Made by a program: the position numbers and the translations under genes
In this document: in pieces, positions 1,921 to 64,000 of the stretch
Position numbering within the stretch: position 1 is the first letter of the stretch
How the letters are laid out: each line of letters begins with the position of its first letter
Notes under the pieces: generated by a model
What the model was told of the DNA's origin: nothing
Database searches by the model: none
What the model saw: the letters and a program-made list of their open reading frames with translations, nothing else
DNA from: an uncultured bacterium
GTDB taxonomy: Bacteria; Actinomycetota; Acidimicrobiia; Spongiisociales; UBA5794
Direction: 5' to 3'
DNA: 64,000 nt
Assembly (NCBI GenBank): GCA_963801165.1
Contig: CAWDDT010000010.1
Coordinates: forward strand, 192,001-256,000

Positions 1921-2820
1921 ATGGTGAGCTTCGAGGGTCGGGTGGCGGTGGTCACCGGTGCCGGCGGGGGTTTGGGAAGGGAGCACGCGCTGCTGCTGGC
2001 CGGGCGCGGAGCAGCTGTTGTCGTCAACGATCTCGGCGGGTCTGTGTCGGGGGAGGGGTCCGACTCGTCCGCTGCCGATCGCGTGGTCTCCGAGATCACA
2101 GAGTCGGGCGGGTCTGCTGTTGCCGAGCATTCTTCGGTGGCCGATCCGGCCGGCGGCGAGGCGATCGTGGCACGGGCTCTCGAGACCTTTGGCCGTCTCG
2201 ACATCGTCATCAACAACGCCGGCATCCTTCGGGACAAGAGCTTTGCGAACCTCACTCCGGATCTAGTGAATCCGGTGCTCGACGTGCATCTCGGAGGAGC
2301 CTTCAACGTGACCCGGCCCGCCTTTGCTCATATGAAGGAGCAAGGTTACGGACGCATTCTGTTCACAACCAGCGGCTCGGGGCTGATGGGCAACTTTGGC
2401 CAGGCCAATTACGGAGCGGCCAAGATGGGTCTGATCGGTCTCATGAATGTGCTCAAGATCGAGGGGGCCCGCTACAACATAAAGGTCAACGCCGTTGCCC
2501 CTATCGCCCTCACCCGCATGACCGAAGGTCTGTTCGGCGGAGTTGTCGACCTGTTCGCGCCCGTGCAGGTGTCGCCGGCGGTGGCCTACCTGGTGTCGGA
2601 GGAGTGTGACCTGACAGGGGAGATCTGGTCGGTGGGTGGCGGATCCGTGAGCAGGTTCTTCATCGGCCTCACCGACGGCTATGTCAAACCCGACCGGGAA
2701 GGTCTGCTGACGATCGAAGACGTGGAAGCGCACGTCGAGGAGATCCGCGACGAATCCGCCTACCTCGTGCCGTTCTCCTCGCAGGACGAGTTCGGCAAGC
2801 TCGGTCCGAGGCTGGGCTAG
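1921..2820 (+). CDS. SDR oxidoreductase (MFE-2/3-hydroxyacyl-CoA dehydrogenase-like)
   Basis: TGAGGGLG, VNDLGG, NNAGILRD and NFGQANYGAAK motifs. Confidence 0.9.
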   Translation: MVSFEGRVAVVTGAGGGLGREHALLLAGRGAAVVVNDLGGSVSGEGSDSSAADRVVSEITESGGSAVAEHSSVADPAGGEAIVARALETFGRLDIVINNAGILRDKSFANLTPDLVNPVLDVHLGGAFNVTRPAFAHMKEQGYGRILFTTSGSGLMGNFGQANYGAAKMGLIGLMNVLKIEGARYNIKVNAVAPIALTRMTEGLFGGVVDLFAPVQVSPAVAYLVSEECDLTGEIWSVGGGSVSRFFIGLTDGYVKPDREGLLTIEDVEAHVEEIRDESAYLVPFSSQDEFGKLGPRLG

Positions 2821-3389
2821 TGCTGGTGGCTCCCGAATCCGATGCCACGAAGGACGAGTGGCGCGAGTGGGCCCGTTCGGAGCGAGCCGGCATGAACTGG
2901 AACGACATCTCGCGGCGTGTCGTCGACGAGTTGCAGGGCTGGCTCGAGCCCAATAGCTACCAGACAGTCCTCATCTACCTGCCTCTGATCGACGAGATCG
3001 ATCTGCGCCGGTTGCTCGACGAGGATCGGGAGACGAGGTTCGTAGCCACGAGGACCCCCGAACGTGGTGGCGATCTCAGCGTCCACGAGTTGGGTGGCCC
3101 GCTCGAGGTCCACCGGTTCGGTTTTCTGCAGCCCCACGCAACCGCACCGCGGGTCGGTCCCGACGCCATCGATGTCCTGCTGCTCCCGGGGCTTGTCTTC
3201 GATCTCTACGGGAACCGTCTGGGGCACGGAGCGGGCTATTTCGACCGGCTGCTGGCGACGACCCATGCCGAAGCGAAGTTGGTCGGGGTCGTGCCCGCCG
3301 CCCTGGTCGTCGACCGGTTGCCGGTCGAGCCGCATGACATCCCGGTAGGGTTTCTTGCCACTGAGGAAGGCGTCATCGAGACCGCGTAA
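2820..3389 (+). CDS. 5-formyltetrahydrofolate cyclo-ligase
   Basis: PGLVFD..GNRLGHGAGYFDRLL and P.EPHD motifs. Confidence 0.9.
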   Translation: MLVAPESDATKDEWREWARSERAGMNWNDISRRVVDELQGWLEPNSYQTVLIYLPLIDEIDLRRLLDEDRETRFVATRTPERGGDLSVHELGGPLEVHRFGFLQPHATAPRVGPDAIDVLLLPGLVFDLYGNRLGHGAGYFDRLLATTHAEAKLVGVVPAALVVDRLPVEPHDIPVGFLATEEGVIETA

Positions 3390-3418
3390 CGCCGGCGTGA
3401 GGTTGGCCCGAACCCGTC

Positions 3419-4420
3419 CTAGGACTCGACCGATAGTACCGAATCGGGATTGATGTGGAACGAGATGTCGTCGCCGATCTCGAAACGGCGCCGGCTGGTC
3501 CCGGTGAGTTCGACGTCGTCGACCCTGAACCGGACGGTGTATTCGCCGCTGCGGAATGTGGCTCCGCTCACCGTCCCGGTGTTGGGACCGTCGGAGGCGA
3601 CGGTGACGGCGTGGGGCGGGATCACCAGACGATGCTCGCCGGGGGGCAGCGCCGACTCGAACCGGGTCCATCCGAGATCGGCGGCACCCTCTAGGACCTT
3701 GGCGTCGACGATCGCGGTGAAGCCGAGCATGCGAGCCACGAACTCATTGCGAGGGTCGGCCCATAGGTCCTGCGGGGTCCCCTTGCGGATGAGCCTGCCG
3801 CTATCCATGACGGCCACGGTGTCGGCGATGGCAAAGGCTTCATCTCGATCATGGGTCACATATATGGCCGTAACCGAGAGCTCGGAGAAGATCGCCTTCA
3901 TCTCCGCGGTGAGGTGCTCGCGTAGCGAGCGATCGAGAGCCCCGATCGGCTCGTCGAGGAGGATCAGCCGTGGCGATGGTGCCAGGGTCCTGGCGAGGGC
4001 GACCCGTTGCTGTTCACCGCCCGAGAGTTCGTGGACGAGCCGCTTCTGATAGCCGGCGAGGCCGACGATGTCGAGCACGTGGGCGACGCGCTCTTCCCGG
4101 CGAACCCAGTCCACGTCCTGCATGCGCAGCCCGAACTGGACGTTCCCGGCGACCGACAGGTGCGGAAAGAGCGCATAGTCCTGGAACATGAAGCCGAAGC
4201 CTCGTTCGTGGGGTGGCACGTTGCGCAGGTTGCGGCCGTTCCACGTGACCGTTCCGATGTCGAGATTCTGGAGACCGGCGAGCGAGCGGAGCAGTGTCGT
4301 CTTGCCGCACCCCGACGGTCCCATCACGGCGACTATCTCGGAGTCGTGCACGGTGAGGTTCACCGCGTCGAGAGCATATGTGTCACCGAAGGTGACGGTG
4401 AGCCGGAGGCCTTGCAGCAT
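3419..4420 (-). CDS. thiQ: Thiamine ABC transporter ATP-binding subunit
   Basis: GPSGCGKT, FQDYALFPH, LSGGEQQR and LLDEP motifs; last gene of the TPP-riboswitch operon. Confidence 0.8.
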   Translation of the reverse strand: MLQGLRLTVTFGDTYALDAVNLTVHDSEIVAVMGPSGCGKTTLLRSLAGLQNLDIGTVTWNGRNLRNVPPHERGFGFMFQDYALFPHLSVAGNVQFGLRMQDVDWVRREERVAHVLDIVGLAGYQKRLVHELSGGEQQRVALARTLAPSPRLILLDEPIGALDRSLREHLTAEMKAIFSELSVTAIYVTHDRDEAFAIADTVAVMDSGRLIRKGTPQDLWADPRNEFVARMLGFTAIVDAKVLEGAADLGWTRFESALPPGEHRLVIPPHAVTVASDGPNTGTVSGATFRSGEYTVRFRVDDVELTGTSRRRFEIGDDISFHINPDSVLSVES

Positions 4421-6063
4421 CAGAAATCACCGAGGCCTTCGGTGCGCGACCGCTCGATGGCGAAGATGGTGACGGTCGTGGCGACCATCAGGATGGTGCT
4501 GAGTGCCATGGCGCTGCTGAAGCTCTCCGTTCCGGGTCTGCCCAGAAGCCGGAAGATAGCGGTTGGCAAGGTCGGGTTGCTCGGCAGCGCCAGGAATGAT
4601 GTTGCGCCGAACTCCCCGAGAGACACTGCAAAAGCGAATCCGGCGCCGATCAGCGCTGCCCTGGTGACGAGGGGCAGATCGATTTCTCGCCATACCCGAT
4701 TTGGAGGCGCCCCCAGCATGGCAGCGGCTTCCCGCAGGCGGTGACGCACCGATCGCATCACGGGCACCGCGGTGCGCACCACGAACGGTATGGCCACCAT
4801 CGAGTGGGCAATCGGGATGATCCAGATGGAGGTACGGAGATCGATCGGTGCGTCGAAAGCCAGGAGGAAGCCAAAGCCAAGGGTCACCGCCGACGTACCG
4901 AGAGGCAGCATCAGCAGCGCATCGAAAGAGCGGGACAGCCAGCCTCTGCGGTAGGCGATGACTGTAGCGGCGGCCAATCCGATGGCGACGGCGAGCAGCG
5001 TGGCCACAACGGCGAACCGGGCTGAGTTCCAGATGGCGGTGGTAGCCGGAGCCGCCATCCCGGCGACGCGCTCATTCAGGTTCCGGTAGGCGGCCAGGGT
5101 GTAGCCATTTGCGGAGCGGAACGACCGGTCGATGAGAACAAACAGGGGCGTTCCCAACAGCAGCAGCATGAACAGTAGGTTGGCCAGAACGGTGAGACGT
5201 TCCCGCCTGCTCTGCATTGGCTTCGCTGCGGCCGCGACGCTGTGTTCGAACTCGACGGAACGTCGTTCCTGGTAGCGGGAGTAGAGAAACAGAATCAGTG
5301 TGATCCCGATGATCTGGAGCAAAGCGAGTGCCGCGGCGACGTTGAAATCGAGTAGACCGGTCGCCTGGCGCCAGATCTCGACATCGAGCGTGGAGTACTG
5401 GAGGCCACCGAGGATGAGGATGATCCCAAACGACGTGAAGGTGAATAGGAACACCAGGGAGGCGGCGGAGGCGAGTGCAGGACGCAGCAGGGGAAGAGTG
5501 ACCCGCCAGAAGACACGGAACCGGGTCGCCCCGAGCATGGCTCCTGCCTCCTCGAGTGCCGGATCGAGTCTCTCCCAGTACGTCGAGACGGTCCGTACCA
5601 CGATCGAGTAGTTGAAGAAAACGTGGGCGAGCAGGATGGCCCAGATCGTATGGCGAAGGTCGATGCCGACGGGTCCGCTCGGTCCGAGCAACGCGAGGAA
5701 AGCGCTGCCCACTACCACCGTGGGGAGGACAAAGGGCACGACTATCGCCGCTCGCACGAAACGTTTCCCGCGGAACTCGTAGCGCGCCAGCACGTGTGCA
5801 GCGGGCAGTGCTGCCACCACGGTCAGGATTGTGGATGCGGTGGCTTGCCACAGCGTGAACCAGGCGACATCGAGCAAGGCGGGCCGCCGGAACACCGAAT
5901 CGATCGGGCCGAAGTCGAGACGGCCGTCTGCAGTGAACCCGGTGGCGAGAACCGAGAGTAGGGGGTAGGCGAAGAAGTACGCGAGAAAGGCGACGGGGAT
6001 CGCGACCAACGCGATCTTCCCAACTCTCCTCAACGCAGGGTGTCCGTCCACTCGTTGATCCAT
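4420..6063 (-). CDS. thiP: Thiamine ABC transporter permease (two-domain)
   Basis: Two EAA motifs (LEEAGAMLGA, LREAAAMLGA), SLGEFGAT, many TM helices. Confidence 0.85.
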   Translation of the reverse strand: MDQRVDGHPALRRVGKIALVAIPVAFLAYFFAYPLLSVLATGFTADGRLDFGPIDSVFRRPALLDVAWFTLWQATASTILTVVAALPAAHVLARYEFRGKRFVRAAIVVPFVLPTVVVGSAFLALLGPSGPVGIDLRHTIWAILLAHVFFNYSIVVRTVSTYWERLDPALEEAGAMLGATRFRVFWRVTLPLLRPALASAASLVFLFTFTSFGIILILGGLQYSTLDVEIWRQATGLLDFNVAAALALLQIIGITLILFLYSRYQERRSVEFEHSVAAAAKPMQSRRERLTVLANLLFMLLLLGTPLFVLIDRSFRSANGYTLAAYRNLNERVAGMAAPATTAIWNSARFAVVATLLAVAIGLAAATVIAYRRGWLSRSFDALLMLPLGTSAVTLGFGFLLAFDAPIDLRTSIWIIPIAHSMVAIPFVVRTAVPVMRSVRHRLREAAAMLGAPPNRVWREIDLPLVTRAALIGAGFAFAVSLGEFGATSFLALPSNPTLPTAIFRLLGRPGTESFSSAMALSTILMVATTVTIFAIERSRTEGLGDF

Positions 6064-7110: not shown

Positions 7111-7758
7111 TCAATTCCTTTCCTGGATTGTCAGAACGTGCCCACCCGCAACGGCAACCTGTGCTTCCTCGGCGACGATCTCGTTGCTGACGCCTCGTGT
7201 CGAGCCCGCCTGGAGTGCGATGCCGTCGAGCGGCCAGCGGAGACCGGTAGCCGTGCAGAATGCGGTTCCGCCGACCGCGATCACAGACAGCACCGCACCG
7301 TCGCTCTTTTGGAAGACCCTGTGGTCACCGGCGCGGAGCGGGACGATTACGGCTTGCCCGGTCAGCCACTCGAGGGCGACGGGGTGATCGCCGAGCAAGA
7401 TCATGGCGTTGGCCAGCGTGTGCGCCATCCTGCCGCCCGTGCCACCGATGATGGTGGCCCTGGAGAAGCCGGCCCGTGCCGCGGCCGCGATGGCGAGTTC
7501 CAGATCGGTAGCGTCTTTGTCGATCGGATGGCGCTCGATGACGACGCCGGCAGCGGACGCTCGCTCCAGCGCCGCGGCGGTGACCGAGTCCATGTCGCCG
7601 ACGACGAGGTCTGGCTCGATGCCGAGTTCGTACGCCTGGTCGAGACCGGAATCCGCTGCAACTACCCAGACGGGCACGTCGAGCCGTGTGAGCAACCCGG
7701 AGCCGACCTGCTCGCCGCCCGCAATTATCAATGCCGATTCTGGCTTTGCGTCTTCCAC
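7111..7758 (-). CDS. thiN: Thiamine diphosphokinase
   Basis: AADSGL, VGDMDS, DKDATDLELA, GGRMAH, GLRWPL and GVSN motifs. Confidence 0.9.
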   Translation of the reverse strand: MEDAKPESALIIAGGEQVGSGLLTRLDVPVWVVAADSGLDQAYELGIEPDLVVGDMDSVTAAALERASAAGVVIERHPIDKDATDLELAIAAAARAGFSRATIIGGTGGRMAHTLANAMILLGDHPVALEWLTGQAVIVPLRAGDHRVFQKSDGAVLSVIAVGGTAFCTATGLRWPLDGIALQAGSTRGVSNEIVAEEAQVAVAGGHVLTIQERN

Positions 7759-7760
7759 AC

Positions 7761-7872
7761 GCTTCCTCCGCTGGCATGACCCAGATCAGGTTCCACGGGT
7801 CGGTGGCGTTCCGAGCGCTGGCTCGACCGGCCACCCTCTCAGTCCGGCGTTCCCGAACTCCCCGGGGTGGGG
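7761..7872 (-). ncRNA. TPP riboswitch
   Basis: Minus strand reads GGGGAG..CTGAGAG..GACCCGTGGAACCTGATCTGGGTCATGCCAGCGGAGG, the TPP aptamer consensus, directly upstream of the thiamine genes. Confidence 0.95.
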
Positions 7873-7931
7873 ATGAAATCACCCTAACACTTCGGGTTGG
7901 TGCCGACGGTCGCCGCGACCTGCCGCGACCC

Positions 7932-8005
7932 TGTCAAGACCCTGCCGCGACTCTATTGACAACGCGACTGCACTGTGACATCATAGTGCTGTCAAGATAG
8001 TGTCA
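7932..8005 (+). promoter_or_regulatory. Promoter (TTGACA at 7956) with clustered TGACA/TGTCA half-sites; putative operator
   Basis: TGTCA at 7932, 7990 and 8001; TGACA at 7957 and 7976; TGACA-N9-TGTCA palindrome at 7976-7994. Confidence 0.45.
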
Positions 8006-8038
8006 TCCGGGAAAACCGGTGAGACAGAGGAGGGCAAG

Positions 8039-8176
8039 ATGATGTGGGCAAACAACCCCGAGATCCTGAGGGAGCTTCACCAGGAGCGGGTTCGCCAGAT
8101 GCGGCGGACTATGCGGCGGCCACGTTTGAAGCTGATTGCGATGGAGCGAGAAGCCGACGCCACCGGTGACAATTGA
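8039..8176 (+). CDS. Small 45-aa ORF (MMWANNPEILRELHQERVRQMRRTMRRPRLKLIAMEREADATGDN)
   Basis: Strong SD GAGGAGG just upstream; fills the gap between the promoter and the RHH gene; below the ORF-track cutoff. Confidence 0.55.
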   Translation: MMWANNPEILRELHQERVRQMRRTMRRPRLKLIAMEREADATGDN

Positions 8177-8201
8177 AGTACTGTCATCCGACGGAGGAAG
8201 A

Positions 8202-8645
8202 ATGAACACAGAAGCGATAGCAGCCAAGCTGGAGGACCAGCTGGTGGCGGCGGGCCGGATAGCCGGAGGCGATCCTGCTGCGGAGTTGATTGTCGATGCG
8301 CTGGTCACGTCATTGGGGCCGGCCATTCGCCAGGCTGTCACGGATCTGGTGGAGCAAGCAGCCACTGAGATCGGGGCTCAGTTGCCCGCCGGCCGGGTCG
8401 AAGTCCTACTCAACGAGGGGGAGCCGTCGCTCGTATACCGCAGCGAGGAGCCGGAAGCTTCGTTCAGCACAGAGGACCTCGAAGCGCGGATGACGGTGCG
8501 TCTTCCGAGCAATCTCAAGGCTGCTCTCGAGGAAGCGGCTGACCGCACCGGCGACTCGGTGAACAGCTTCGTGTTGAAGACTCTGGTCTCGGGCACGAAC
8601 CGTGGCAAGCGTGGTCGTCGGGTCGTGGAAACGTTCGAGACATGA
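8202..8645 (+). CDS. Ribbon-helix-helix (HicB/DUF1778-like) DNA-binding protein
   Basis: C-terminal ARMTVRLPSNLKAALEEAA..GDSVNSF RHH motif; SD GGAGG before ATG 8202. Confidence 0.8.
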   Translation: MNTEAIAAKLEDQLVAAGRIAGGDPAAELIVDALVTSLGPAIRQAVTDLVEQAATEIGAQLPAGRVEVLLNEGEPSLVYRSEEPEASFSTEDLEARMTVRLPSNLKAALEEAADRTGDSVNSFVLKTLVSGTNRGKRGRRVVETFET

Positions 8646-9403
8646 GAGATCGCATCGAGACATTTCAGGTCGGGGCCTCGGTTCGGGTGGTAGCAGGCAC
8701 ACGCAGCGGGGACATCGCTGTGGTGGTCGGCTCACCCGGAACGGTGCAGGTCGCCATGGACGGTGCCGGTGCAGAGTCCTTTCAGATCGACCAGATAGGG
8801 GACGTGATCACCGTGGACTCGAAGCGCAAGGGTATCTTCAGCTCGTCGACCGACATCGTGCTGACCGTTCCTTCAAGCACCAGACTCGAGCTTTCGTGCA
8901 CGTCGGGTGATATCGATGTCCAGGGAGACGTCGAAGAACTACGGGCCTCGGTGGCAAGCGGGGACGTTCGTGCCGAGACGGTTCGCTCCGTCTGTCACGT
9001 CAACTCGGCTTCCGGTGACATCACGATCGGCGCGGCAGGCGATGTCGAGATCAACACCGCATCCGGAACCGTCCGCGTCGACAGGGTCGCGCACAACCTC
9101 CGGCTCAACTCAGCGAGCGGCGACGTGTACATCGATGAGATTGGCGACACCTCGCGGTCCAAGGTAGCCAGCAGCACAGTCCGTATTGGAGCGTTCCAGG
9201 GTACTGAGGTGCGCCACAAGTCGATGTCGGGCGATCTGTACCTCGGTATCCCGCGGCGCCGCAGCGTGGAGCTCGACTTCGCCAGTCTCTCGGGGAGACT
9301 CCGCAACCACATCTCCAAGGGCGACGGTGGTCCTTCCGAGAAGTTGCTGGTTGTATCGGTAAATGCAGTTTCCGGCGACCTGATTCTGCAAGACGCCAAC
9401 TGA
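8642..9403 (+). CDS. DUF4097-family beta-strand repeat protein
   Basis: Repeated (T/S)xSGD(I/V) motifs; ATGA overlap with the RHH gene. Confidence 0.85.
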   Translation: MRDRIETFQVGASVRVVAGTRSGDIAVVVGSPGTVQVAMDGAGAESFQIDQIGDVITVDSKRKGIFSSSTDIVLTVPSSTRLELSCTSGDIDVQGDVEELRASVASGDVRAETVRSVCHVNSASGDITIGAAGDVEINTASGTVRVDRVAHNLRLNSASGDVYIDEIGDTSRSKVASSTVRIGAFQGTEVRHKSMSGDLYLGIPRRRSVELDFASLSGRLRNHISKGDGGPSEKLLVVSVNAVSGDLILQDAN

Positions 9404-9450
9404 GTCGACCTGGTCGGAGGGCGACGGCGTACGGCGGGCCGCTATCCTCG

Positions 9451-10164
9451 ATGAACGTGGCGGTCCCCGAACCCTTCAATGACGCTGAGGCCCGGTACCG
9501 GGAGCACGCCGGCTGGCCAACCGGCGGCGAGGATCGTGCCGTGATCATCGGGATCGGAGGCGGGTCGGGTTCGGGCAAGACGACGATCGCTGAGTCCGTG
9601 TTGGCCAATGTCGGGGCCGATACCGTCTCTCTCATCCAGCACGACGCTTACTACCGGGACTTGCCCGACCTGGCCTTCGAGGAGCGCGCCAGGGTCAACT
9701 ACGACCATCCGGACTCGCTCGAGACCGAGCTTCTCATCGAGCACATTCACGAGCTGAGGGCCGGGCGGACGATTGACCGTCCTGTCTACGACTTCACCAT
9801 TCACAGACGAACGAGCCGGACGGTCGCTGTGCGACCCGACCCCGTGATCATCATCGAAGGCATCCTCGTGCTCAGCGAACCTGAGCTACGCAGCGTCATG
9901 GATCTGCGCATCTACGTGGACGCCGACGCCGACCTGCGCTTCATCCGCCGTCTGGAACGAGATATCCAGGAGCGGGAGCGCACCGTGGAGTCGGTGATCG
10001 CTCAGTACCAGGAGACGGTCCGCCCGATGCATCTTCAGTTCGTAGAGCCGTCGAAACGGTACGCCGACATCATCGTCCCCAGCGGCGGGTACAACCGGGG
10101 CGCCGTCGGCACGATCATCTCGATGATCCGCGATGTCCTTTCGGAAGCCCGGCAGCGCACCTAG
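9451..10164 (+). CDS. udk: Uridine kinase
   Basis: GIGGGSGSGKTT, DAYY, NYDHPD, RRLERDI.ER and PMHLQFVEPSKRYAD motifs. Confidence 0.95.
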   Translation: MNVAVPEPFNDAEARYREHAGWPTGGEDRAVIIGIGGGSGSGKTTIAESVLANVGADTVSLIQHDAYYRDLPDLAFEERARVNYDHPDSLETELLIEHIHELRAGRTIDRPVYDFTIHRRTSRTVAVRPDPVIIIEGILVLSEPELRSVMDLRIYVDADADLRFIRRLERDIQERERTVESVIAQYQETVRPMHLQFVEPSKRYADIIVPSGGYNRGAVGTIISMIRDVLSEARQRT

Positions 10165-10937
10165 GCGGGAGGCCGTATGCGGCGCCGTCGCTCCTCGTAG
10201 CGGGCCGCGAGGATCTCCACCGCAGGCATCGCGGCATTCGCGTATATCCGATGACCGTACGCCGAAGCGTGGAACAGGTCGCCGGCGAACACCTCGTCCG
10301 GGTTGGTCAGGAATTCCTGCCAGCCGGCCGACCATGTGTGGGTCTTGATGACGTCGGGGAAGTCGTCAACCACGCGGCGGATCGCCCTGTCGAACGACCG
10401 TCCCCTGATCCTGACGATCGAGCGAATCAACGCCGGGAGTCGTGGGATCGATCCGAGATCGCCGATGCCGGACACCGCCACCCCCGGGACATGACGATCC
10501 AGCTGGGCGACGATCTGGCGATATTCCCGCTCGAAGCGGCTCAGTTGCGTCGCCCGCAGCGCATCGTTGGCGCCGATCGACACGAAGACGAGGTCGGGGT
10601 TGAGCGAAATCGCCGGCAGCAGCTGCCCGGCTATGACGTCTCTTGCCTTGGCGCCGCCGACCGCTACCGAGCGCAGCTCCACCCTGTACCTGTCCGAGAG
10701 CCTGTGGGCGATCTGTCGTGGCCACGACGCGTCGAGTGGCTCGACACCGGGTGAGGTCACCGAGCTGTCGCCCATGACGACGAGCCGCAGTCGGGGCAGA
10801 TCGGGATCGCCGAAGTCACCAGACGGGTCCTGGTTGCTGAGCGTGGGAAGGTCCTTGCGGCGACCGGCCCTCACCACCTGAGCGACCAGGACACCGACGC
10901 CAAACAGCGGCTTCCGGAGGAAACGCAATCGTGACAT
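10161..10937 (-). CDS. SGNH/GDSL hydrolase
   Basis: MGDS, IGAND and DLFHAS..GH blocks. Confidence 0.85.
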   Translation of the reverse strand: MSRLRFLRKPLFGVGVLVAQVVRAGRRKDLPTLSNQDPSGDFGDPDLPRLRLVVMGDSSVTSPGVEPLDASWPRQIAHRLSDRYRVELRSVAVGGAKARDVIAGQLLPAISLNPDLVFVSIGANDALRATQLSRFEREYRQIVAQLDRHVPGVAVSGIGDLGSIPRLPALIRSIVRIRGRSFDRAIRRVVDDFPDVIKTHTWSAGWQEFLTNPDEVFAGDLFHASAYGHRIYANAAMPAVEILAARYEERRRRIRPPA

Positions 10938-10987
10938 AGCTTCATGATTGTACCGGTACCGGGCTGCTTGATTCTGCCGGTGCGGCA

Positions 10988-12652
10988 TCACGTGCGGAGC
11001 TCGCCAGGAGCTCCAGCGGGGACAAATGGCGCCGCCGGAGCGACCACGGGGACTCTGCGGTATGGCTCGTCCTGCGGCGGGCGAGGATCGGCTTCGCCCC
11101 TGTTGGGCCAGAGAGCCATAGCGCGTTCGGTCATGGCGGTGATGGTGAGAGCCGGATTGACCCCGAGGTTGGCCGGTAGAGCCGAACCGTCGGCGACGTG
11201 CAAGCCGGAGTATCCGAACACCCGGTGATACGGATCGATGGTCCCGGCAGTCGCGTTGGCACCGATGGAGGCGCCACCGATGATGTGCGCCGTCGTCGGC
11301 ACATCGAGGAGCACCTCGTTGATGGCGCTGGCCGGGTAGCCACCCATCGAGTTCGCCGCCACGCGTGCCGCCTCATTGGCGACGGGTATGTAGCTCGGAT
11401 TTGGTGTTGTGTCGTCCTGAGAGGAGCGCAGCCGCTCGCCAAACCGTCCCTTCTTCAGGGTCACGTGGATCCTGTTGTCCAGGCTTTGCATGACGAGCAA
11501 TATCACCGAACGCTCCGACCACCTGTGGACGGACAGGCTTCGTGCGAACCGGATGGGATGGCGGATCACCTCACCGAGAAAGCGGATCTGGCGAGGGACC
11601 CGGCCACCGCCGTCGACCAGGATCGTCGCCAGCAGCCCCATTGCGTTGCTGCCGGGCGGGTAGCGCACGGGTTCGATGTGGGTTTGGGGTTCGGGATGGA
11701 TCGACGAGGTGATGGCGACACCCTGGGAGTAGTCGACGTCCCGGCTCTTTGCGGTGGCGCCGAGCAGAGCCTCCGAGTTGGTGCGGACGGATTGGCCGAG
11801 CTGCTCGGAAAGCGCCGGCAACGATCCCTGTTGCAGTCGCAACAGGAGACGGGTCGTGCCGAGGGCACCGGCCGAGAAGACCACTTGATCCGCGGTGAAC
11901 GTGCGCTGCCGCTTACGGATCCAGGCGCCCGGTCGTTGAGTCGTCACTGTGTAGCCACCGTCTTTGCGGGCAGCGACGTCGAGCACTTCGGTCTCGGGGT
12001 GAACCACTGTCCCGGCCCGCTCGGCCAGGTACAGGTAGTTGCGGTCCAGCGTGTTCTTGGCGTTGAACCGGCAGCCCACCATGCATCCGCCGCAGGTGAC
12101 ACAGCCGGTTCGCTCCGGTCCCACTCCGCCGAAGTAGGGATCGGGCGTCGTCTCGCCCGCCTCTCCGAAGTAGACCCCAACCGGGGCGGGTGTGTACGTC
12201 TCCTCAACACCGAAGTGAGCGGCGACGTCTTTGAGGACGAGATCGGCCGGAGTCGTGTTGGGATAGGGGGTAGCGCCGAGCATCCGCTTTGCTTGAGCGA
12301 AAAACGGAGCCAGTTCTTCCTTCCATCCGGTGATGGCGCCCCAGGTGTTGTCGCTGTAGAACGCATCGTGCGGTTCGTACAGCGTGTTGGCGTAAACCAG
12401 CGACCCGCCGCCAACGCCGGCGCCCGACAGCACGAGTACGTCATGGAGAAGTGTCAGCCGCTGGATACCCCGCATGCCGAGACGGGGAAACCAGAAGAAC
12501 TTGCGAAGGTTCCAGTTGGTCTTCGGGTAGTCGTCTTTGCCGAACCGTCTTCCGGATTCGAGCACGGCGACCCGGTATCCCTTCTCGGAGAGACGGAGCG
12601 CGGTGACGCTGCCACCAAAGCCCGACCCGATCACGACCACGTCGTAGTGCAT
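10988..12652 (-). CDS. choD: Cholesterol oxidase-like GMC oxidoreductase
   Basis: IGSGFGGSV, GVGGGSLVYANTLY, CxxCGxCMVGCR, NAKNTL and NLGVNPALTITA motifs. Confidence 0.85.
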   Translation of the reverse strand: MHYDVVVIGSGFGGSVTALRLSEKGYRVAVLESGRRFGKDDYPKTNWNLRKFFWFPRLGMRGIQRLTLLHDVLVLSGAGVGGGSLVYANTLYEPHDAFYSDNTWGAITGWKEELAPFFAQAKRMLGATPYPNTTPADLVLKDVAAHFGVEETYTPAPVGVYFGEAGETTPDPYFGGVGPERTGCVTCGGCMVGCRFNAKNTLDRNYLYLAERAGTVVHPETEVLDVAARKDGGYTVTTQRPGAWIRKRQRTFTADQVVFSAGALGTTRLLLRLQQGSLPALSEQLGQSVRTNSEALLGATAKSRDVDYSQGVAITSSIHPEPQTHIEPVRYPPGSNAMGLLATILVDGGGRVPRQIRFLGEVIRHPIRFARSLSVHRWSERSVILLVMQSLDNRIHVTLKKGRFGERLRSSQDDTTPNPSYIPVANEAARVAANSMGGYPASAINEVLLDVPTTAHIIGGASIGANATAGTIDPYHRVFGYSGLHVADGSALPANLGVNPALTITAMTERAMALWPNRGEADPRPPQDEPYRRVPVVAPAAPFVPAGAPGELRT

Positions 12653-58263: not shown

Positions 58264-59025
58264 TCAGTAGGTGCGGACGACCTTGATGGCGGCCTCGGCC
58301 TTCTCACCCTCGGTCTTTAGCGAGCTAGCGGCAGAGTCCATACGATGAACCGCGATCCGGCACCATTCCCCCGCGATGCCTTTGATGATGTCGGTGGCGT
58401 CCTCGGGGCCGTAGACCCAGCGGGAGTAGCTCGGTCCCATCAGCTCCAACCGAATGCCGCCCTCTGGGAACTCCTCGCCGGCCTCGGCAAATGCATACGG
58501 GAGCATGCGATGAGCCAGCCAGGCGACGTGACGGATGCGTGATGTGTCGGCGGTCGGGTCGTCTTCTTCATCGTAGGTGAGCCGCCCCTCCATTGCGTCT
58601 TTGATGTCCAGACCGTGCGCCCAGGTCTCCATCAGACGCAATGTGGCATAGGCGCGGGCGCTCATGTCGCCGCTGAACCAGGGGACCCGGTCGCCGCCGT
58701 CCATACGCGAGAGCGCATCGACGACGTCGGCGCGGCTGTTGCGCCACCATTCGATCACCTGCTGGTAGCGCATCTTGCGACCCTCTTTGACCCCCCGCGC
58801 GGTCCACTCGTCAATGTCGTCCTTGTTCACACGAGAAACGACCTTTTTCCCGTCGGCAAGCACCTCGGCGGCGAAGCGTTCGGAGTAGGCGAGGTGGCTC
58901 ACCGTGTCCTTGATGCTCCAGCCGGGCGCAGAAGTCGGCAGATTCCACTGCCGCTCGTTGATCCGTTGCAGGAACTGGTCGAGGGATTGTTGCTCAGCTA
59001 CGAGGTCAGAGAGTATCTCACGCAT
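58264..59025 (-). CDS. MDMPI/DinB-like metal-binding protein (TIGR03084-like)
   Basis: WSIKDTVSHLA and RLMETWAHGLD motifs. Confidence 0.85.
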   Translation of the reverse strand: MREILSDLVAEQQSLDQFLQRINERQWNLPTSAPGWSIKDTVSHLAYSERFAAEVLADGKKVVSRVNKDDIDEWTARGVKEGRKMRYQQVIEWWRNSRADVVDALSRMDGGDRVPWFSGDMSARAYATLRLMETWAHGLDIKDAMEGRLTYDEEDDPTADTSRIRHVAWLAHRMLPYAFAEAGEEFPEGGIRLELMGPSYSRWVYGPEDATDIIKGIAGEWCRIAVHRMDSAASSLKTEGEKAEAAIKVVRTY

Positions 59026-59049: not shown

Positions 59050-60117
59050 CTATGCGGGTGAATCCTCCGCGGCGGCATTGAGCTGATCGACCATCAATCG
59101 GAGCTTTCCGAGGTGACGTCGATCGAAGTGGAGACGGATCCTCGGCAGGTCGACGTGGTCGTCGGTGCGGATCTCGGCGGGGGTTGCGGCGATCTTTTCG
59201 ATCCTGCCTTTTACGAGGATGTCGCCGAACTCGTCGTTGAGACGCTCGATCAAGGCGACCGACGGCTCATGCTTGAGACGGAGGACCAGCTTTCCGTCCA
59301 CATAGCGTTGCGAGTGGTAGTTGTTGTAGAAGCGTCTGATCTCGTCGGCGGCCTCTTCAGCGTTGTTGGTGTAGGTGAACAGGCTCAGGTCGTCCGGGGC
59401 GATCATGCCCTGATCTCGCAGCGTCTCGACGAAGTCGAACCACTCTTTCCAGTACCCGGTTCCCTCGGCCTCCATCAACACGATCGGATGCATGTCCGAC
59501 TTCCCGGTTTGGGTGAGCGTCAGCAGCTCGAACGTCTCGTCCTGGGTGCCAAACCCACCTGGAAACACGGCAAACGCGTCGGATTCCTTGACGAAGACGA
59601 GTTTTCTGGTGAAGAAGTACTTGAAGTTGATGAGCCGGCTCTCGTGTACGTACGGGTTGGCGTCGGCTTCGAAGGGGAGCCGGATATTGACCCCGAATCC
59701 GTAGTCACTGCCGGCGCCGCGATTGCCGGCCTCCATGATCCCGGGGCCGGCTCCGGTGATGACCATCCACTGGTAGCCGTCCGCCATCAGGTTGGCGAAC
59801 TCTCCCGCCAGCTGGTAGTTGGGGCTACCGGGAGCGGTACGAGCCGAGCCGTAGACGGTCACCTTCGGTGTCTCCGTGTAACGGGAGAACACCATGAATG
59901 AGTAGCGCAGCTCCTTGAGCGCGCTATTGACGATCTTGAGATCTCCGCGGTCGGTGTCGTCGCGGTGCATCTTGATGATCGAGACGATCATCTCGCGAAT
60001 GAGATCATCGTCGTGGTCGTGGCCGGCGTGGCCGGCGACCGCGTCGCTGACGAGGGCGGCCAGCTGATCGTCCAGTTCTTTGTTACCCAGGTGATAGTTC
60101 CGCATCAGGCTCCGCAT
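59050..60117 (-). CDS. LOG-family nucleotide phosphoribohydrolase-like protein
   Basis: YGSART, TGAGPGIMEA, FKYFFTRK and PGGFGTQDE motifs. Confidence 0.9.
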   Translation of the reverse strand: MRSLMRNYHLGNKELDDQLAALVSDAVAGHAGHDHDDDLIREMIVSIIKMHRDDTDRGDLKIVNSALKELRYSFMVFSRYTETPKVTVYGSARTAPGSPNYQLAGEFANLMADGYQWMVITGAGPGIMEAGNRGAGSDYGFGVNIRLPFEADANPYVHESRLINFKYFFTRKLVFVKESDAFAVFPGGFGTQDETFELLTLTQTGKSDMHPIVLMEAEGTGYWKEWFDFVETLRDQGMIAPDDLSLFTYTNNAEEAADEIRRFYNNYHSQRYVDGKLVLRLKHEPSVALIERLNDEFGDILVKGRIEKIAATPAEIRTDDHVDLPRIRLHFDRRHLGKLRLMVDQLNAAAEDSPA

Positions 60118-60168
60118 GGCCCGGCACCGACGTGTACCGGACTGTCGACGCTACTACCGTCCGTGTCT

Positions 60169-60807
60169 ATGCGCCATGTGATCTGGGACTGGAATGGCAC
60201 GCTTGTCGACGACCTCCACGTCGTCGTAGATGCCGTCAACGTATCTCTCGCCGGGTTCGGTGCGGGCCCGATCGACGCCGACGACTATCGGGACCACTAC
60301 ACCCGTCCGGTACGTGTCTTTTACGACCGATTGCTGAACCGCGCCGTCACCGATGACGAGTGGCGCCGCATCGACACGACGTTTCACACCAACTACTCGA
60401 ACGGGCTACACCGGGTAGCTCTGACCGAAGATGCCGAAGCGGCGATCCGGGCGGTGAAAGCGGCGGGGGCCACCCAGTCGATCCTCTCGATGTGGTGGCA
60501 AGAGGACCTGGTTCCCGAGGTGAGACGGCACGGGCTGGACGACATCATGGTTCGTATCGACGGCAATACGCTCGAAGGGGGCGAAACGAAAGCAGCGCTG
60601 CTCGAGATGCATCTCAGCCATCTGCCCGCCCGCAGCGAACCGGTGCTGATCGGCGACGCCACCGACGATGCCCATGCGGCGGCCTCCGCAGGGATTCCGG
60701 CCGTCATCTACGACGGCGGGAGCCACCATCGTGAGTTGCTCGAGTCGCTCGGCGTCCCGGTTGTCGGCACCCTGACGGAAGCGGTGATGGTGGGTCTGGC
60801 GCTATGA
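60169..60807 (+). CDS. HAD-family hydrolase
   Basis: WDWNGTLVDD and LIGDATDD motifs. Confidence 0.88.
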   Translation: MRHVIWDWNGTLVDDLHVVVDAVNVSLAGFGAGPIDADDYRDHYTRPVRVFYDRLLNRAVTDDEWRRIDTTFHTNYSNGLHRVALTEDAEAAIRAVKAAGATQSILSMWWQEDLVPEVRRHGLDDIMVRIDGNTLEGGETKAALLEMHLSHLPARSEPVLIGDATDDAHAAASAGIPAVIYDGGSHHRELLESLGVPVVGTLTEAVMVGLAL

Positions 60808-60844: not shown

Positions 60845-61504
60845 GTGATCCTCGCGGACAAGTGCTTGATCCTCCACATGCCCAAGACAGGCGGTGTGTT
60901 CATCCGCATGCTTCTCGAGAAGCACTACGGGGACGCCGTGCAGCTCGCAACGGGGAAGGGGTTCGACGATCCGAGCGCTCCGTGGGCCCAGCACCATTCG
61001 ATCGACGACGTCCCGGCGGAGTTCCGCAGCCTCCCCGCGTTTGGGTTCGTCCGGAACCCGTGGGATTGGTATGTCTCGTGGTTCCACTTCTTCATGTCCT
61101 ATCCGCACCGGCCCCCGCACTTTGTCACCGTCTCGCACGACAAGACCCTCGACTTCGCCGGCTTCATGACCAGCCTGTACAGCTATCCCGAGGACTCGCC
61201 CGAGTACCTGTACAACAGCTTCTCCGCCGAGTATTACCGGATCTTCGGTTGCAACGAGGCCGTACCCCGTAACCCGGTCATCGAGATGGGGCGCTACGAG
61301 ACAGTGCACGACGATCTGCACGCGTTCTTGGCCCGCGTCGGAGTCGATCGGGAATGCCTCGACGATATCGAGGGGTTCCGCCGGATGAACCCGAGCCCGC
61401 ACCGCCATTACTCGACCTATTACACCGACGAGGTTGTCGACCAGGTCTACCGCCACAACCGCGCCGTGATCGACGAGTTCGGGTATAGGTTCGATCCGGC
61501 GTAG
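60845..61504 (+). CDS. Sulfotransferase family 2-like protein
   Basis: LHMPKTGG (5'-PSB) and FVRNPWDWYVSWF (3'-PB) motifs; terminal FGY.F. Confidence 0.75.
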   Translation: MILADKCLILHMPKTGGVFIRMLLEKHYGDAVQLATGKGFDDPSAPWAQHHSIDDVPAEFRSLPAFGFVRNPWDWYVSWFHFFMSYPHRPPHFVTVSHDKTLDFAGFMTSLYSYPEDSPEYLYNSFSAEYYRIFGCNEAVPRNPVIEMGRYETVHDDLHAFLARVGVDRECLDDIEGFRRMNPSPHRHYSTYYTDEVVDQVYRHNRAVIDEFGYRFDPA

Positions 61505-61571: not shown

Positions 61572-62057
61572 CTAATCGCGGTAGTTGATGTACTGGAGGG
61601 GGAGGCGGAAGTCCAGGTCGCGGAGCAGTTGGATGACCTCCTGGAGGTCGTCCCGCTTCTTGCCCTGCACCCGCAACTGGTCGGCCTGGACCTGGACCTG
61701 CACCTTCAACTTCGAGTCGCGAATGAGTTTCGACAACTCCTTGGCGGCGTCCTGTGGAATGCCCTGGCTCAGGGTGAAGAGTGTCTGTGATCTGCCACCC
61801 GCGGCCGGTTTGATCTCTCCACCTGCGATGGATTTGAGCGACACCTTGCGTTTGACGAGACGGCCCTTGAGGACGTCGATAGCGGCCTCCAACCTGCTGT
61901 CGGCGTTGGATTCGAGCGAGATGCCCTCGTCGGTCAGCCCGACCTTGGTGTCGGTGCCCTTGAAGTCGTAGCGGTTGGTGATCTCGCGTACCGCCTGGTC
62001 GACCGCGTTGCGGACTTCCTGCATGTCTACCTGGGAAACGATGTCGAATGAAGGCAT
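61572..62057 (-). CDS. yajQ: YajQ-family nucleotide/c-di-GMP-binding protein
   Basis: MPSFDIVS, RYDFKG, GKKRDDLQ and terminal NYRD. Confidence 0.95.
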   Translation of the reverse strand: MPSFDIVSQVDMQEVRNAVDQAVREITNRYDFKGTDTKVGLTDEGISLESNADSRLEAAIDVLKGRLVKRKVSLKSIAGGEIKPAAGGRSQTLFTLSQGIPQDAAKELSKLIRDSKLKVQVQVQADQLRVQGKKRDDLQEVIQLLRDLDFRLPLQYINYRD

Positions 62058-62086: not shown

Positions 62087-63076
62087 TCACCGGTACGGAT
62101 TCTCGCCCGGGCCGCGCCGGGCCACCGCCGACCAGACGGTCTCGTAGTGGTCACGATCGAAGCGGTCGACGTGGGGGAGCACGAACTCTTCCCAGGTGCG
62201 GCGCAGCGGATCCGGGGCCGTCGCGTAGACCCGTAGGCCCGCCGGGATCCGGTCGAGCACGGTCCGCAGGCTCATCGGGGTCTCTACGCGTGTCTGGGAA
62301 TCCGTGGAGCTGAATGAGGCGTTCACCTCGACGGCCAGCTTGGCGATGGGCTCCGAGAACACCGGCTTCAGGCCGCTATGGCGGCGATGGAGCATGCTCA
62401 CCAACTCCTCCTCGGCGGGGAAGTCCTTCTCCCAGATGATCCAGCGATCGGCGAAGGCCTTGTTCAGCGTCTGGGTGCCTGCGTAGTCGCGGAGATCGGT
62501 CGGGTTGAGCGTCCCGAACACACGGACGTCGTGGCGAAGCCGCACCATCTCGCCAGTCGGTAGCTCCAGGGCTTGATGACGGTCGAGCAGACCGTGCAAA
62601 GCGAACAGGGTCTCGGCACCGGCAGCGTTTAGCTCCGACAGGTTGATCAAGGCCGGACCGCGCAGCGCTCTTGTTATGTCGCCATCTTCCCACCGGCTTT
62701 CGGTTCCGCCCTTGCCGTCGCCGTAGAGCTTCACCGATCCGATCAACGTGATGTCACGAACCTCACCCGTCAAGGGGATCCGGTAATGCGGCATACCGAG
62801 TGTCGCGGCGAACTGCTCGAGATCATGATCCTTGCCGGTCCCCATGTGGCCACGCAAGGCGAGGTGCAGCGGAGAGTCCTTGAAGTGGTTGCGCCGCACC
62901 TCCTCCACCTGGGCGAGGCGATACAGCATCCCGAGATCCACGTAATACGGATCCGGATCGGGGATGTGCTCGATCCGCAGGTCGTGGTCCGGCATGTCGG
63001 CCGGGATCTCGGTTTTCTCTAGCTCGATGGGCGGGCCTTCCCCTGCAGGATCGTCGAAAGTCACCATCTCAGGCAT
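62087..63076 (-). CDS. MoxR-group (CobS/CbbQ/NorQ-like) AAA+ ATPase with atypical Walker motifs
   Basis: GHMGTGKD, W.DG.IT.A, INLSELN, GTLNP and YAGTQTLN.AFADRW motifs. Confidence 0.85.
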   Translation of the reverse strand: MPEMVTFDDPAGEGPPIELEKTEIPADMPDHDLRIEHIPDPDPYYVDLGMLYRLAQVEEVRRNHFKDSPLHLALRGHMGTGKDHDLEQFAATLGMPHYRIPLTGEVRDITLIGSVKLYGDGKGGTESRWEDGDITRALRGPALINLSELNAAGAETLFALHGLLDRHQALELPTGEMVRLRHDVRVFGTLNPTDLRDYAGTQTLNKAFADRWIIWEKDFPAEEELVSMLHRRHSGLKPVFSEPIAKLAVEVNASFSSTDSQTRVETPMSLRTVLDRIPAGLRVYATAPDPLRRTWEEFVLPHVDRFDRDHYETVWSAVARRGPGENPYR

Positions 63077-64000
63077 TGGTGATGCTCCTTTGTTTGCTCA
63101 GATATTCGGAAGAGGAATGTGCCCACCACGTCTCGCCGCCGGCGGCAGCGATGGTGCGGAGCAAGCTCGAGCGGACACCGTCGATCATCGCTCTGGTGAG
63201 CTCCGCCGGCCACTCTACGACCTGGTGGCGTTGGTACGCCGCGGTCACAGTGTCGTCTCCGATGCCGATGCCCAGCACCGTGGTGCCGTTCCTCTCGGCG
63301 GCGTCCACGGATTCGGCAAGGGCTCGGACCGTGCCCCGCGTCATACCGTCGGCGAGGACGACGAGGATGCGGGTCGATACGTGCCGGGCGGCGAGCCGCT
63401 GCGTCGCATAGGTCACGTTGAACTCGTCGACGTTGGCTGCTTTGTCGAACATCGACACCGGCGGAGTGTTTTCCGGGTCTCTGCGTGCCGCATGCCCTGC
63501 TTCGCGGGGCGCAGCCGCCATGTAGAAGAGACCGGCCATCACGTCTTCGTGCTGGCGCCACCGGTTGTCGAACGGTTTGACCAGATAGTGGTTGACGGTG
63601 CGGGAGAGCCGGTCGGCCGAGCCACCATGGCTGCGACGCAACCCACCGATGGCGCTGTGTCTCCGGCTGGTGAAGGTTCGCTCGGTGTCGTCGCCGGTGG
63701 CGGGGAAGGAGCGGTTGAACACGGCGACTTCGAAGTCGATCTGGAGCTCATGGCAAAGCGCGGCGAGTGACCACGCACCGAGAGTCGCGGCGGCCAGGGC
63801 CCACGGGGCTTTGCGCGCGGTACCCACCCGGAGCGGTTGCAGCATCGACGCCGACCCGTCGACGAGCAGGCTGACGGCATAGCTGCGTCGTGTCGGCAGA
63901 TCGCGCCGCTCGAACATACGCTCGTACAAACCTGCACCGAGCAGCAGCGCCGAATACGGCGAGAGATCACCTGCGTCGAAACCGGAGCGGAGCCCCCGCC
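63069..64000 (-). CDS. vWA-domain protein (CobT/NorD-like), 5' part beyond the window edge
   Basis: MIDAS VDGSASM, LVVLADG and LGIGIG motifs; overlaps the start of the AAA gene. Confidence 0.8.
   Translation of the reverse strand, partial: RGLRSGFDAGDLSPYSALLLGAGLYERMFERRDLPTRRSYAVSLLVDGSASMLQPLRVGTARKAPWALAAATLGAWSLAALCHELQIDFEVAVFNRSFPATGDDTERTFTSRRHSAIGGLRRSHGGSADRLSRTVNHYLVKPFDNRWRQHEDVMAGLFYMAAAPREAGHAARRDPENTPPVSMFDKAANVDEFNVTYATQRLAARHVSTRILVVLADGMTRGTVRALAESVDAAERNGTTVLGIGIGDDTVTAAYQRHQVVEWPAELTRAMIDGVRSSLLRTIAAAGGETWWAHSSSEYLSKQRSITNA

Follow-up and report, generated by a model that had tools for sequence, protein, structure and literature searches.

The ATPase gene and its partner at the locus

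We analysed a window of 64,000 nucleotides (nt) from an uncultured bacterium of the order Spongiisociales (Actinomycetota, Acidimicrobiia; GenBank assembly GCA_963801165.1, contig CAWDDT010000010.1, positions 192,001 to 256,000 of the forward strand). At its end, on the reverse strand, it carries the gene of an AAA+ ATPase and the 3′ part of the gene of a protein with a VWA domain (Table 1). A first-pass annotation, made from the letters alone, had described Asp at the Ser/Thr position of the ATPase's Walker A motif and Ser at the Asp position of its Walker B motif. Translation of the open reading frame (ORF) into 329 amino acids (aa) indeed gives GHMGTGK-D and LINL-S-E, and both the residues and their coordinates held. 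The alignments agree: when matched with HMMER against midasin AAA domains, Asp83 takes the column of the GKT Thr and Ser147 that of the DE Asp, and the same placement was obtained against canonical-site relatives in a 35-sequence alignment (A1) of 21 GKD/SE-family rows and 14 outgroup rows.

The protein thus departs from both classical consensus motifs. In place of GxxGxGK[ST] it has GHMGTGKD, in which the Gly residues and the Lys are kept and the position after the Lys (K+1) is Asp in all members; in place of hhhhDE it has LINLSE, with Ser for Asp, the Glu kept and Asn at position −2. The other catalytic elements are in place. Lys82, the catalytic Glu148, Asn191 of sensor 1 and Arg211 of the Arg finger, which had been called intact from the single sequence, are invariant in A1 even across the outgroups. 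Arg271 of sensor 2 is also present and is kept in all 21 family rows, so that the sensor-1 Asn, Arg finger and sensor-2 Arg of the AAA+ class are all found.

Two further characters set the family apart. The DGKGGTESRW segment, with its insertion in the helix-2-insert region, is present in 21/21 family rows and gapped in 14/14 outgroup rows. Asn145, two residues before the Walker B Ser, is found in all 36 genomic loci, while every outgroup has a hydrophobic residue there; judged by these columns, Asn145 is a residue that changed together with Asp83 and Ser147. His84 at K+2 is not family-specific, as it also occurs in the GKT outgroups P0398, P0399 and P0404.

Read on the contig, the whole VWA ORF comprises 749 codons from the first TTG and ends at window coordinate 65318, outside the window; homologues suggest Met10 as the true start. 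The overlap of the two genes noticed earlier was borne out. It measures 8 nt here (ATGCCTGA), an arrangement indicating translational coupling of the VWA and ATPase genes. An overlap of 1 to 8 nt was observed in 6 of the 7 full-length loci, the seventh (L038) having a 36-nt gap with the called starts, and the VWA gene precedes the ATPase gene in 36/36 loci.

The VWA protein consists of an N-domain with an HExxH motif, an acidic, low-confidence linker (residues 126–167) and a C-terminal VWA domain whose MIDAS residues (metal ion-dependent adhesion site) are invariant in an alignment of 22 VWA-family sequences (A2). Its AlphaFold2 (AF2) model reached a mean predicted local distance difference test (pLDDT) value of only 69. 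H100, E101, H104 and E200 are likewise invariant in 22/22 sequences; in the model, HExxH and E200 lie on two predicted helices preceded by two short strands, an arrangement that looks zincin-like. SprT-like Pfam matches to the family were weak (3/22 members, best E 0.031).

Table 1. Features of the ATPase/VWA pair in window coordinates
Feature	Position	Strand	Basis or remark
CobS-like AAA+ ATPase, MoxR/AAA_5 class, 329 aa	62087..63076	-	Pfam, PHROG, AF2 model, Foldseek
Walker A GHMGTGKDH, residues G76–H84	62825..62851	-	Alignments to canonical-site relatives
Walker A Lys82	62831-62833	-	
Walker A Asp83 (Ser/Thr position, K+1)	62828-62830	-	
Walker A His84 (K+2)	62825-62827	-	
DGKGGTESRW segment, 4-residue family-specific insertion, helix-2-insert region	62690..62719	-	Alignment A1
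Walker B LINLSELN, residues L143–N150	62627..62650	-	
Walker B Asn145 (Walker B minus 2)	62642-62644	-	
Walker B Ser147 (Asp position)	62636-62638	-	
Walker B catalytic Glu148	62633-62635	-	
Sensor-1 Asn191 (GTLNP)	62504..62506	-	Invariant column in A1, outgroups too
Arg finger Arg211 (AFADRW)	62444..62446	-	Invariant column in A1
Sensor-2 Arg271 (PMSLRTV)	62264..62266	-	A1; aligned with the Arg of STR in most outgroups
Lid (small AAA+) helices and C-terminal tail, residues 242–262 and 309–321, predicted dock of the adaptor N-domain	62114..62353	-	Complex prediction
CobT-like VWA adaptor gene, 3′ part (residues about 440–749)	63069..64000	-	ORF runs past the window end
Overlap of VWA stop and ATPase start, 8 nt, ATGCCTGA	63069..63076	-	VWA ORF ends at 63069, ATPase starts at 63076
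MIDAS DxSxS (D487, S489, S491)	63846..63860	-	Invariant in 22/22 sequences of A2
MIDAS Thr574	63597..63599	-	Invariant in A2
MIDAS Asp657 (LADGMTRG)	63348..63350	-	Invariant in A2
HExxH (H100, E101, H104) of the VWA protein N-domain	65007-65021, outside window	-	VWA gene at locus L002 1570-3819
Invariant Glu E200 downstream of HExxH	64719-64721 (window-equivalent), outside window	-	A2

The exchange is fixed in the family

An unusual pair of residues in one contig could reflect a sequencing or assembly error, or the decay of a pseudogene. We therefore looked at 121 proteins (P0001–P0121), namely 120 homologues listed of the 1599 found and one full-length representative at 50% identity. GKD and SE occur jointly in 121/121 of these proteins and in 36/36 genomic loci. 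Contigs from three other studies contain no differing letter at either motif and up to 19 differences elsewhere in the gene. As the state is fixed and independent contigs agree, the exchange is neither chance nor error. The frame is open, the AF2 model of the ATPase is confident, and nothing was found in favour of an artefact or a decaying gene, an explanation that we consider already refuted.

The codons support the same view. Across the 36 loci, Asp83 is encoded by GAC in 22 and GAT in 14, and Ser147 by TCC (15), TCG (12), TCT (6) and TCA (3), so that all four TCN forms are in use; synonymous variation is also seen at the Asp, His, Asn, Glu and Lys codons. Codons that turn over while the residues stay fixed indicate that the site is held by selection. 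Sequence comparison thus supports both substitutions as fixed family characters under purifying selection, which define a distinct AAA+ subfamily, as had been proposed. The first-pass annotation had also called the double change compensatory rather than a sign of decay. Decay is contradicted by the purifying selection. Compensation and a functionally inverted Mg site, the other parts of that proposal, are possible readings of what we found to be a single event, with neither an intermediate nor a revertant (see below).

The pair belongs to the CobS/CobT-like motors

The ATPase matches Pfam AAA_5 with 44.4 bits (cut-off 22), and the original assignment to MoxR-type AAA+/VWA pairs was upheld. Within this class, the matches point more specifically to CobS and CobT. 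The best profile match of the ATPase is the phage CobS family phrog_249 (E 3.9e-26), and the VWA protein matches the phage CobT families phrog_5298 (9.8e-9) and phrog_17276 (6.9e-6). The CobS equivalog TIGR01650 gives a weak match (49.3 bits, cut-off 558.55) with collinear coverage of 28–274. Among PDB sequences, the ATPase matches NorQ (5e-11) and CobS chains (1.3e-10), and the VWA profile matches the CobT chains 21vt_A (6.5e-5) and 9uka_G (5.1e-4).

CobT_C was matched by 18/22 VWA members at E ≤ 5, the best being a member at locus L033 (E 6.4e-5, 23.1 bits, cut-off 21). The CobT N-terminal domain PF06213 was matched by 2/22 members (best E 0.15). Among PDB entries, the N-domain profile matches the CobT N-terminal chain 21vu_H best, over two collinear stretches and at a non-significant E of 0.16. 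In the Atlas, the nearest clusters of the adaptor N-part are viral and CobT-like, and one is automatically named 'peptidase'.

On the structural side, the AF2 model of the ATPase (pLDDT 88.6) gave CbbQ (6l1q_A) and NorQ (9qh6_B) as top Foldseek matches (E 1e-16, template modelling score 0.83–0.85 on the target); no CobS entry was among its top matches in a library reaching up to April 2026. The top matches of the VWA protein are the NorD VWA domain and MDN1 MIDAS domains, the whole-protein search being dominated by the VWA domain. Taken together, the profile matches identify the two proteins as a divergent motor and adaptor of the CobS/CobT-like kind within the MoxR class.

The exchange arose once, on a long branch

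In the phylum sample (401 genomes), only 2 genomes outside the lineage contained a relative at E ≤ 1e-20 (38–41% identity, family f80). The nearest relatives overall, at about 40% identity, have GKT plus D/E-E. The canonical relatives from family f80 (loci L040 and L041) and from metagenomes (P0393–P0396) are 38–43% identical to the ATPase studied here. Their site reads GKT plus E-E instead of GKD and SE, and they carry an N-terminal extension that it lacks. The N-domain motif LEDAR-E is common to our pair and these relatives. In genome G769 (L040) the layout is the same as here, an HExxH-VWA gene standing directly before the ATPase gene, which implies that the two-gene system is older than the swap. 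At L041 (G484:C18) the VWA gene (2241-4022, +) and the ATPase gene (4042-5127, −) are convergent, not co-directional as in the window, and the HExxH position reads LHGLG, so that this motif is gone, with the MIDAS DxSxS still in place.

The surroundings of the canonical pair at L040 (G769:C4) were also read. At 1241-2613 and 7638-11665 it is flanked by CoxS/CoxM-like genes, called from their translations, and by two large ORFs that appear hydantoinase-like by eye, with a LuxR-type regulator in between.

In a quick maximum-likelihood tree, the only one reported and one in which several outgroup rows are long, the 21 GKD rows form a single clade with a Shimodaira–Hasegawa-like approximate likelihood ratio support of 100, a stem of 6.81 substitutions per site and short internal branches. 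On this tree the swap is placed as having arisen once, on the long stem branch. The long stem followed by short internal branches indicates, as far as branch lengths can tell, a burst of change and then strong constraint.

No intermediate was found among 22 outgroup proteins, all of which have GK[ST], nor among 504 AAA_5 domain matches in 150 representative hits. In the latter set, GKD occurred only with SE (6 cases) or with the Walker B region missing (5), and SE otherwise occurred with Walker A missing (3); all of these cases are fragments, 57–96% identical to the query. Two scans for revertants gave no family member either: GHMGTGK followed by Thr or Ser (TCN) was found at 30 places in genome contigs, AGY Ser codons lying outside the pattern, and N[LF]DELNAAG at 11 places in metagenome contigs. 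Each of the two patterns depends on the exact context of the family, so that diverged forms would escape it.

As the state maps to one clade and one branch, the covariation of GK[D] with [S]E, which had been suggested as a check, amounts statistically to a test with n = 1.

Predicted complex of the ATPase and its adaptor

We predicted the complex of the ATPase with partner residues 20–440, including ATP and Mg. The median score was 0.73, and the best of 3 controls reached 0.01. Among solved complexes 116 of 157 attain the score mark, and among mismatched pairs 2 of 215, a calibration that is approximate here owing to the custom alignments and the ligands. Agreement between runs covers at least 84% of contacts, and the partner pLDDT is at least 70. 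Since CobST, a like complex, has been solved, the score may reflect likeness and not binding.

The predicted interface joins ATPase residues 242–262 and 309–321 (lid helices and C-terminal tail) with partner residues 38–54, 91–99 and 206–213. Residues 91–99 directly precede the HExxH in the same predicted helix (residues 90–107), and in the complex model this HExxH-bearing helix touches the C-terminal tail of the ATPase. The adaptor N-domain is therefore predicted to dock on the lid domain of the ATPase. Such an interface would explain the invariant N-domain residues P41, A42, T44, R45, E92, G209 and S212, and it agrees with the CobST preprint, which places the N-domain of CobT on the small domain of CobS (bioRxiv 10.64898/2026.10.09.757910).

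Distribution of the pair and the search for a client

In the class sample (401 genomes), the ATPase gene was present in 109/109 genomes of the window's order (68–86% identity; genome G254 is unpublished) and, at about 60% identity, in 58 of the 65 genomes of family f12. The latter genomes are about 1 Mb in size, and the three f12 loci that were fetched have about 32% G+C. The remaining families yielded only weak, paralogue-level matches. Between the order and f12 the ATPases are 58–61% identical and the VWA partners just 26–27%. Both lineages have dapB and dapA in the vicinity of the pair, which fits its vertical descent. We also considered the adjacency to dapB, dapA and the M16 peptidase gene as a functional clue and set it aside, as it looks like vertical synteny instead.

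The first-pass annotation had seen no cobN client in the window. A profile search for the CobN/ChlH family (PF02514) extended this: neither the window's own genome (98% complete) nor the 121 genomes examined from the order gave a match, and controls matched in 5/14 genomes. Because no CobN-family protein was found in the order, the pair is not a cobaltochelatase. That it might be a true aerobic cobaltochelatase CobS/CobT motor serving a CobN-type chelatase is suggested by its best named sequence relatives, which are CobS and CobT. Given the PF02514 result and a TIGR01650 score of 49 bits against a cut-off of 558, we regard this explanation as highly improbable, being refuted as far as the searches allow.

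A YajQ/DUF520 gene (61572-62057, −; E 2.2e-60) lies directly downstream of the ATPase gene, and in most loci of the window's family such a gene adjoins the pair in either orientation. It was not found by tblastn in the f2 and f12 loci examined. With this variable orientation and these missing cases, YajQ/DUF520 was rejected as the client.

Other neighbours were recorded as well. Just past the window end, at L002 3791-4267 (+), a small RF-1-domain GGQ protein (ArfB-like) is encoded divergently from the VWA gene and is followed by an ArsR-type regulator and an AHSA1/SRPBCC protein; the ArfB-like gene also adjoins the pair at L038. The genes downstream of the ATPase (59050-60117, −; 58264-59025, −; 60163-60807, +; 60845-61504, +) include a LOG-family gene (Lysine_decarbox, SLOG), a DinB/MDMPI_N gene, a HAD hydrolase and a 219-aa ORF without a Pfam match. 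An MDMPI_N gene and BtpA are also near the pair at the f12 locus L033. As neighbours of the pair, the ArfB-like, ArsR, AHSA1, LOG, DinB and HAD genes are not conserved, and they were rejected as clients.

A rewired ATP site that may still be catalytic

In P-loop NTPases, the Ser/Thr at K+1 is a direct Mg ligand that is hydrogen-bonded to the Walker B Asp, and both residues are described as strictly conserved (PMC9599734); the exceptions named there are a Walker B Glu and a K+1 Gly in NMP kinases (PMC9599734, Kozlova et al. 2022). The first-pass annotation started from this canonical pair. Its premise calls for a qualification at K+1, where a carboxylate was already known: sigma-54 activators (bacterial enhancer-binding proteins) carry GKE at Walker A, and E43 of PspF is essential (PMC3419264). 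The PspF variant E43D turns over 22.26 per min compared with 39.51 for the wild type, with unchanged Km (PMC3419264). This activity implies that a carboxylate at K+1, Asp included, can support AAA+ hydrolysis, and by analogy a GKD/DE intermediate was probably viable. The PspF precedent does not make the Walker B Asp dispensable.

In the reading that we prefer, the carboxylate of Asp83 would bind Mg2+ directly, as Glu at K+1 does in the sigma-54 activators, and Ser147 would contribute the partner hydroxyl. The site would thereby retain one carboxylate and one hydroxyl, along with the combined side-chain length of a normal Thr/Asp pair, and ATP would still be hydrolysed. We put the probability of this arrangement at roughly 0.6; reasoning by analogy, the site is most likely rewired and still catalytic.

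Several points weigh against it. Replacement of either residue of the canonical pair costs activity (Kozlova et al. 2022, PMC9599734), and the Walker B variant D107A of PspF retains 0.23 compared with 39.5 per min even though its K+1 residue is acidic (PMC3419264). A single origin of the swap, on a very long stem, would fit a shift to a non-hydrolytic role as well. The window proteins score below curated cut-offs (CobS, 49 vs 558 bits; CobT_C, 14.2 vs 21 bits; VWA, 18.1 vs 23.8 bits). The neighbourhood did not single out a client, and neighbours differ between lineages. What the analysis establishes is the sequence features with their invariance, the distribution, the folds and a predicted interface of N-domain and lid; the Asp83–Mg and Ser147–Asp83 contacts, hydrolysis, the hexamer and the client are inferred.

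Some of these points speak for the ATPase being a nucleotide-binding switch or a very slow ATPase. Its site would bind ATP, possibly more tightly or without the normal water coordination of Mg2+, and would hydrolyse it poorly; ATP would serve ring assembly and adaptor docking, not repeated power strokes. The crippling effect of losing the Walker B Asp, both in PspF D107A (PMC3419264) and as a general statement (PMC9599734), suits such a role, and so does a one-off change of function followed by strong conservation, as the tree has it. The composition of the site argues otherwise, since Glu148, Asn191, Arg211 and Arg271 are all retained and the replacement is Ser in every member, with no spread of residues. 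Degenerate sites usually lose the catalytic Glu, sensor or Arg-finger residues while the Mg-binding Asp stays. On balance, we think such a switch, the main rival to our reading, rather unlikely.

A different consequence of the exchange could be a shift in cofactor specificity, in which Asp83 and Asn145, perhaps with His84, would select another divalent metal (Mn, Fe, Co, Zn) or another nucleotide and so tie the motor to the metals available. Both a direct carboxylate ligand and the new Asn close to the metal site are peculiar to the family, and the relatives NorQD and CobST are described as serving metal insertion. The K+2 His, by contrast, also occurs in the canonical-site outgroups named above, and for PspF the K+2 residue is given a role in stabilising the nucleotide around its ribose and not one at the metal (PMC3419264). 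Moreover, sigma-54 activators work with GKE, and the case for altered specificity is one of analogy; we consider it improbable.

Returning to a rewired site that still hydrolyses ATP, the pair could work as follows. The adaptor has an HExxH domain at its N-terminus, then an acidic linker and a VWA domain in which the MIDAS is complete, and its gene is translationally coupled to that of the CobS-like ATPase. By analogy with CobST and NorQD, the ATPase would form a hexamer, with the adaptor N-domain docked on its lid and the VWA domain sitting on the ring. The MIDAS would engage an acidic residue of a client, and ATP turnover would remodel that client, again as judged from the related systems. 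We find it fairly probable that the pair is a vertically inherited, lineage-specific two-gene remodelling motor.

Novelty and significance

The titles and abstracts searched contained no description of a GKD/SE variant; the supplementary exception list of PMC9599734 was not covered. In this literature, the Walker B change of Asp to Ser and the combined exchange are without precedent, while the K+1 carboxylate is already known.

A bolder proposal, which we offer only tentatively, is that Asp at K+1 with Ser at Walker B is a working, polarity-inverted version of the near-universal P-loop module, fixed once and maintained ever since in an Acidimicrobiia lineage, and that the pair, in which the HExxH helix of the zincin-like adaptor is predicted to hold the ATPase tail, is a new ATP-driven maturation or processing machine with a housekeeping client. 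If true, it would offer a natural test of the hydrogen-bonded pair as a catalytic proton trap (Kozlova et al. 2022). As a whole family keeps the other catalytic elements with the two Mg-site residues exchanged, it allows a clean test of the role of each residue in Mg2+ binding, proton relay and coupling. The family also shows a conserved role of CobS/CobT-type motors beyond cobalamin synthesis, and the finding bears on the function of the widespread phage cobST genes. Because the pair is universal in the sampled order and kept in 1-Mb genomes, the missing client is worth seeking.

Comparison with known systems

The sigma-54 activators PspF and NtrC resemble the ATPase in having a K+1 carboxylate, one that an AAA+ clade conserves and that permits hydrolysis. 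They belong to another AAA+ clade and keep the Walker B Asp, which is essential there, so they are a precedent for the function of the site and not for membership.

NorQ/NorD and CbbQ/CbbO are the best structural matches of both proteins, and the same logic of a hexameric ring with a VWA/MIDAS adaptor may be expected by analogy. They differ in that the window shows no nor or cbb context, sequence identity is 18–25%, and those proteins have canonical ATP sites and no HExxH N-domain.

Clusters of cobST in phages and archaeal viruses (phrog_249, phrog_5298 and phrog_17276) are the strongest profile matches of the pair, and phage cobT is described as often carrying a peptidase annotation (PMC8651126). 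The phage matches are only 24–32% identical to the pair, and the relatives P0146, P0391 and P0392 have the canonical GKT/DE, in contrast to GKD/SE here. Nor is the location viral or that of a prophage: the two genes are chromosomal core genes beside dapB/dapA and the M16 peptidase gene. Being chromosomal, universal in the order and syntenic in two lineages, the pair does not belong to a mobile element.

In the aerobic cobaltochelatase CobNST, CobS serves as motor and CobT as adaptor, and the two have been solved as CobST (PDB 9ujv, 9uka and 21vt; bioRxiv 10.64898/2026.10.09.757910). The ATPases are of the same length class (329 aa here, 328 aa in CobS), and their motifs, from Walker A and Walker B through sensor 1 and the Arg finger to sensor 2, come in the order and at distances that match those given for Rhodobacter capsulatus CobS, the sensor-2 Arg lying 60 residues past the Arg finger here and 61 in CobS (bioRxiv 10.64898/2026.10.09.757910). 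The adaptor likewise consists of an N-domain, an acidic linker and, at its C-terminus, a VWA domain with a MIDAS that is probably of the CobT_C type. The differences are the lack of a detected CobN, the score far under the equivalog cut-off, the gene order (VWA, then ATPase) and the site itself, GKD/SE here and GKT/DE in CobS. A last difference may lie in the adaptor N-domain, which carries an invariant HExxH here, whereas the words 'zinc' and 'HExxH' are absent from the available text of the CobST preprint (bioRxiv 10.64898/2026.10.09.757910).

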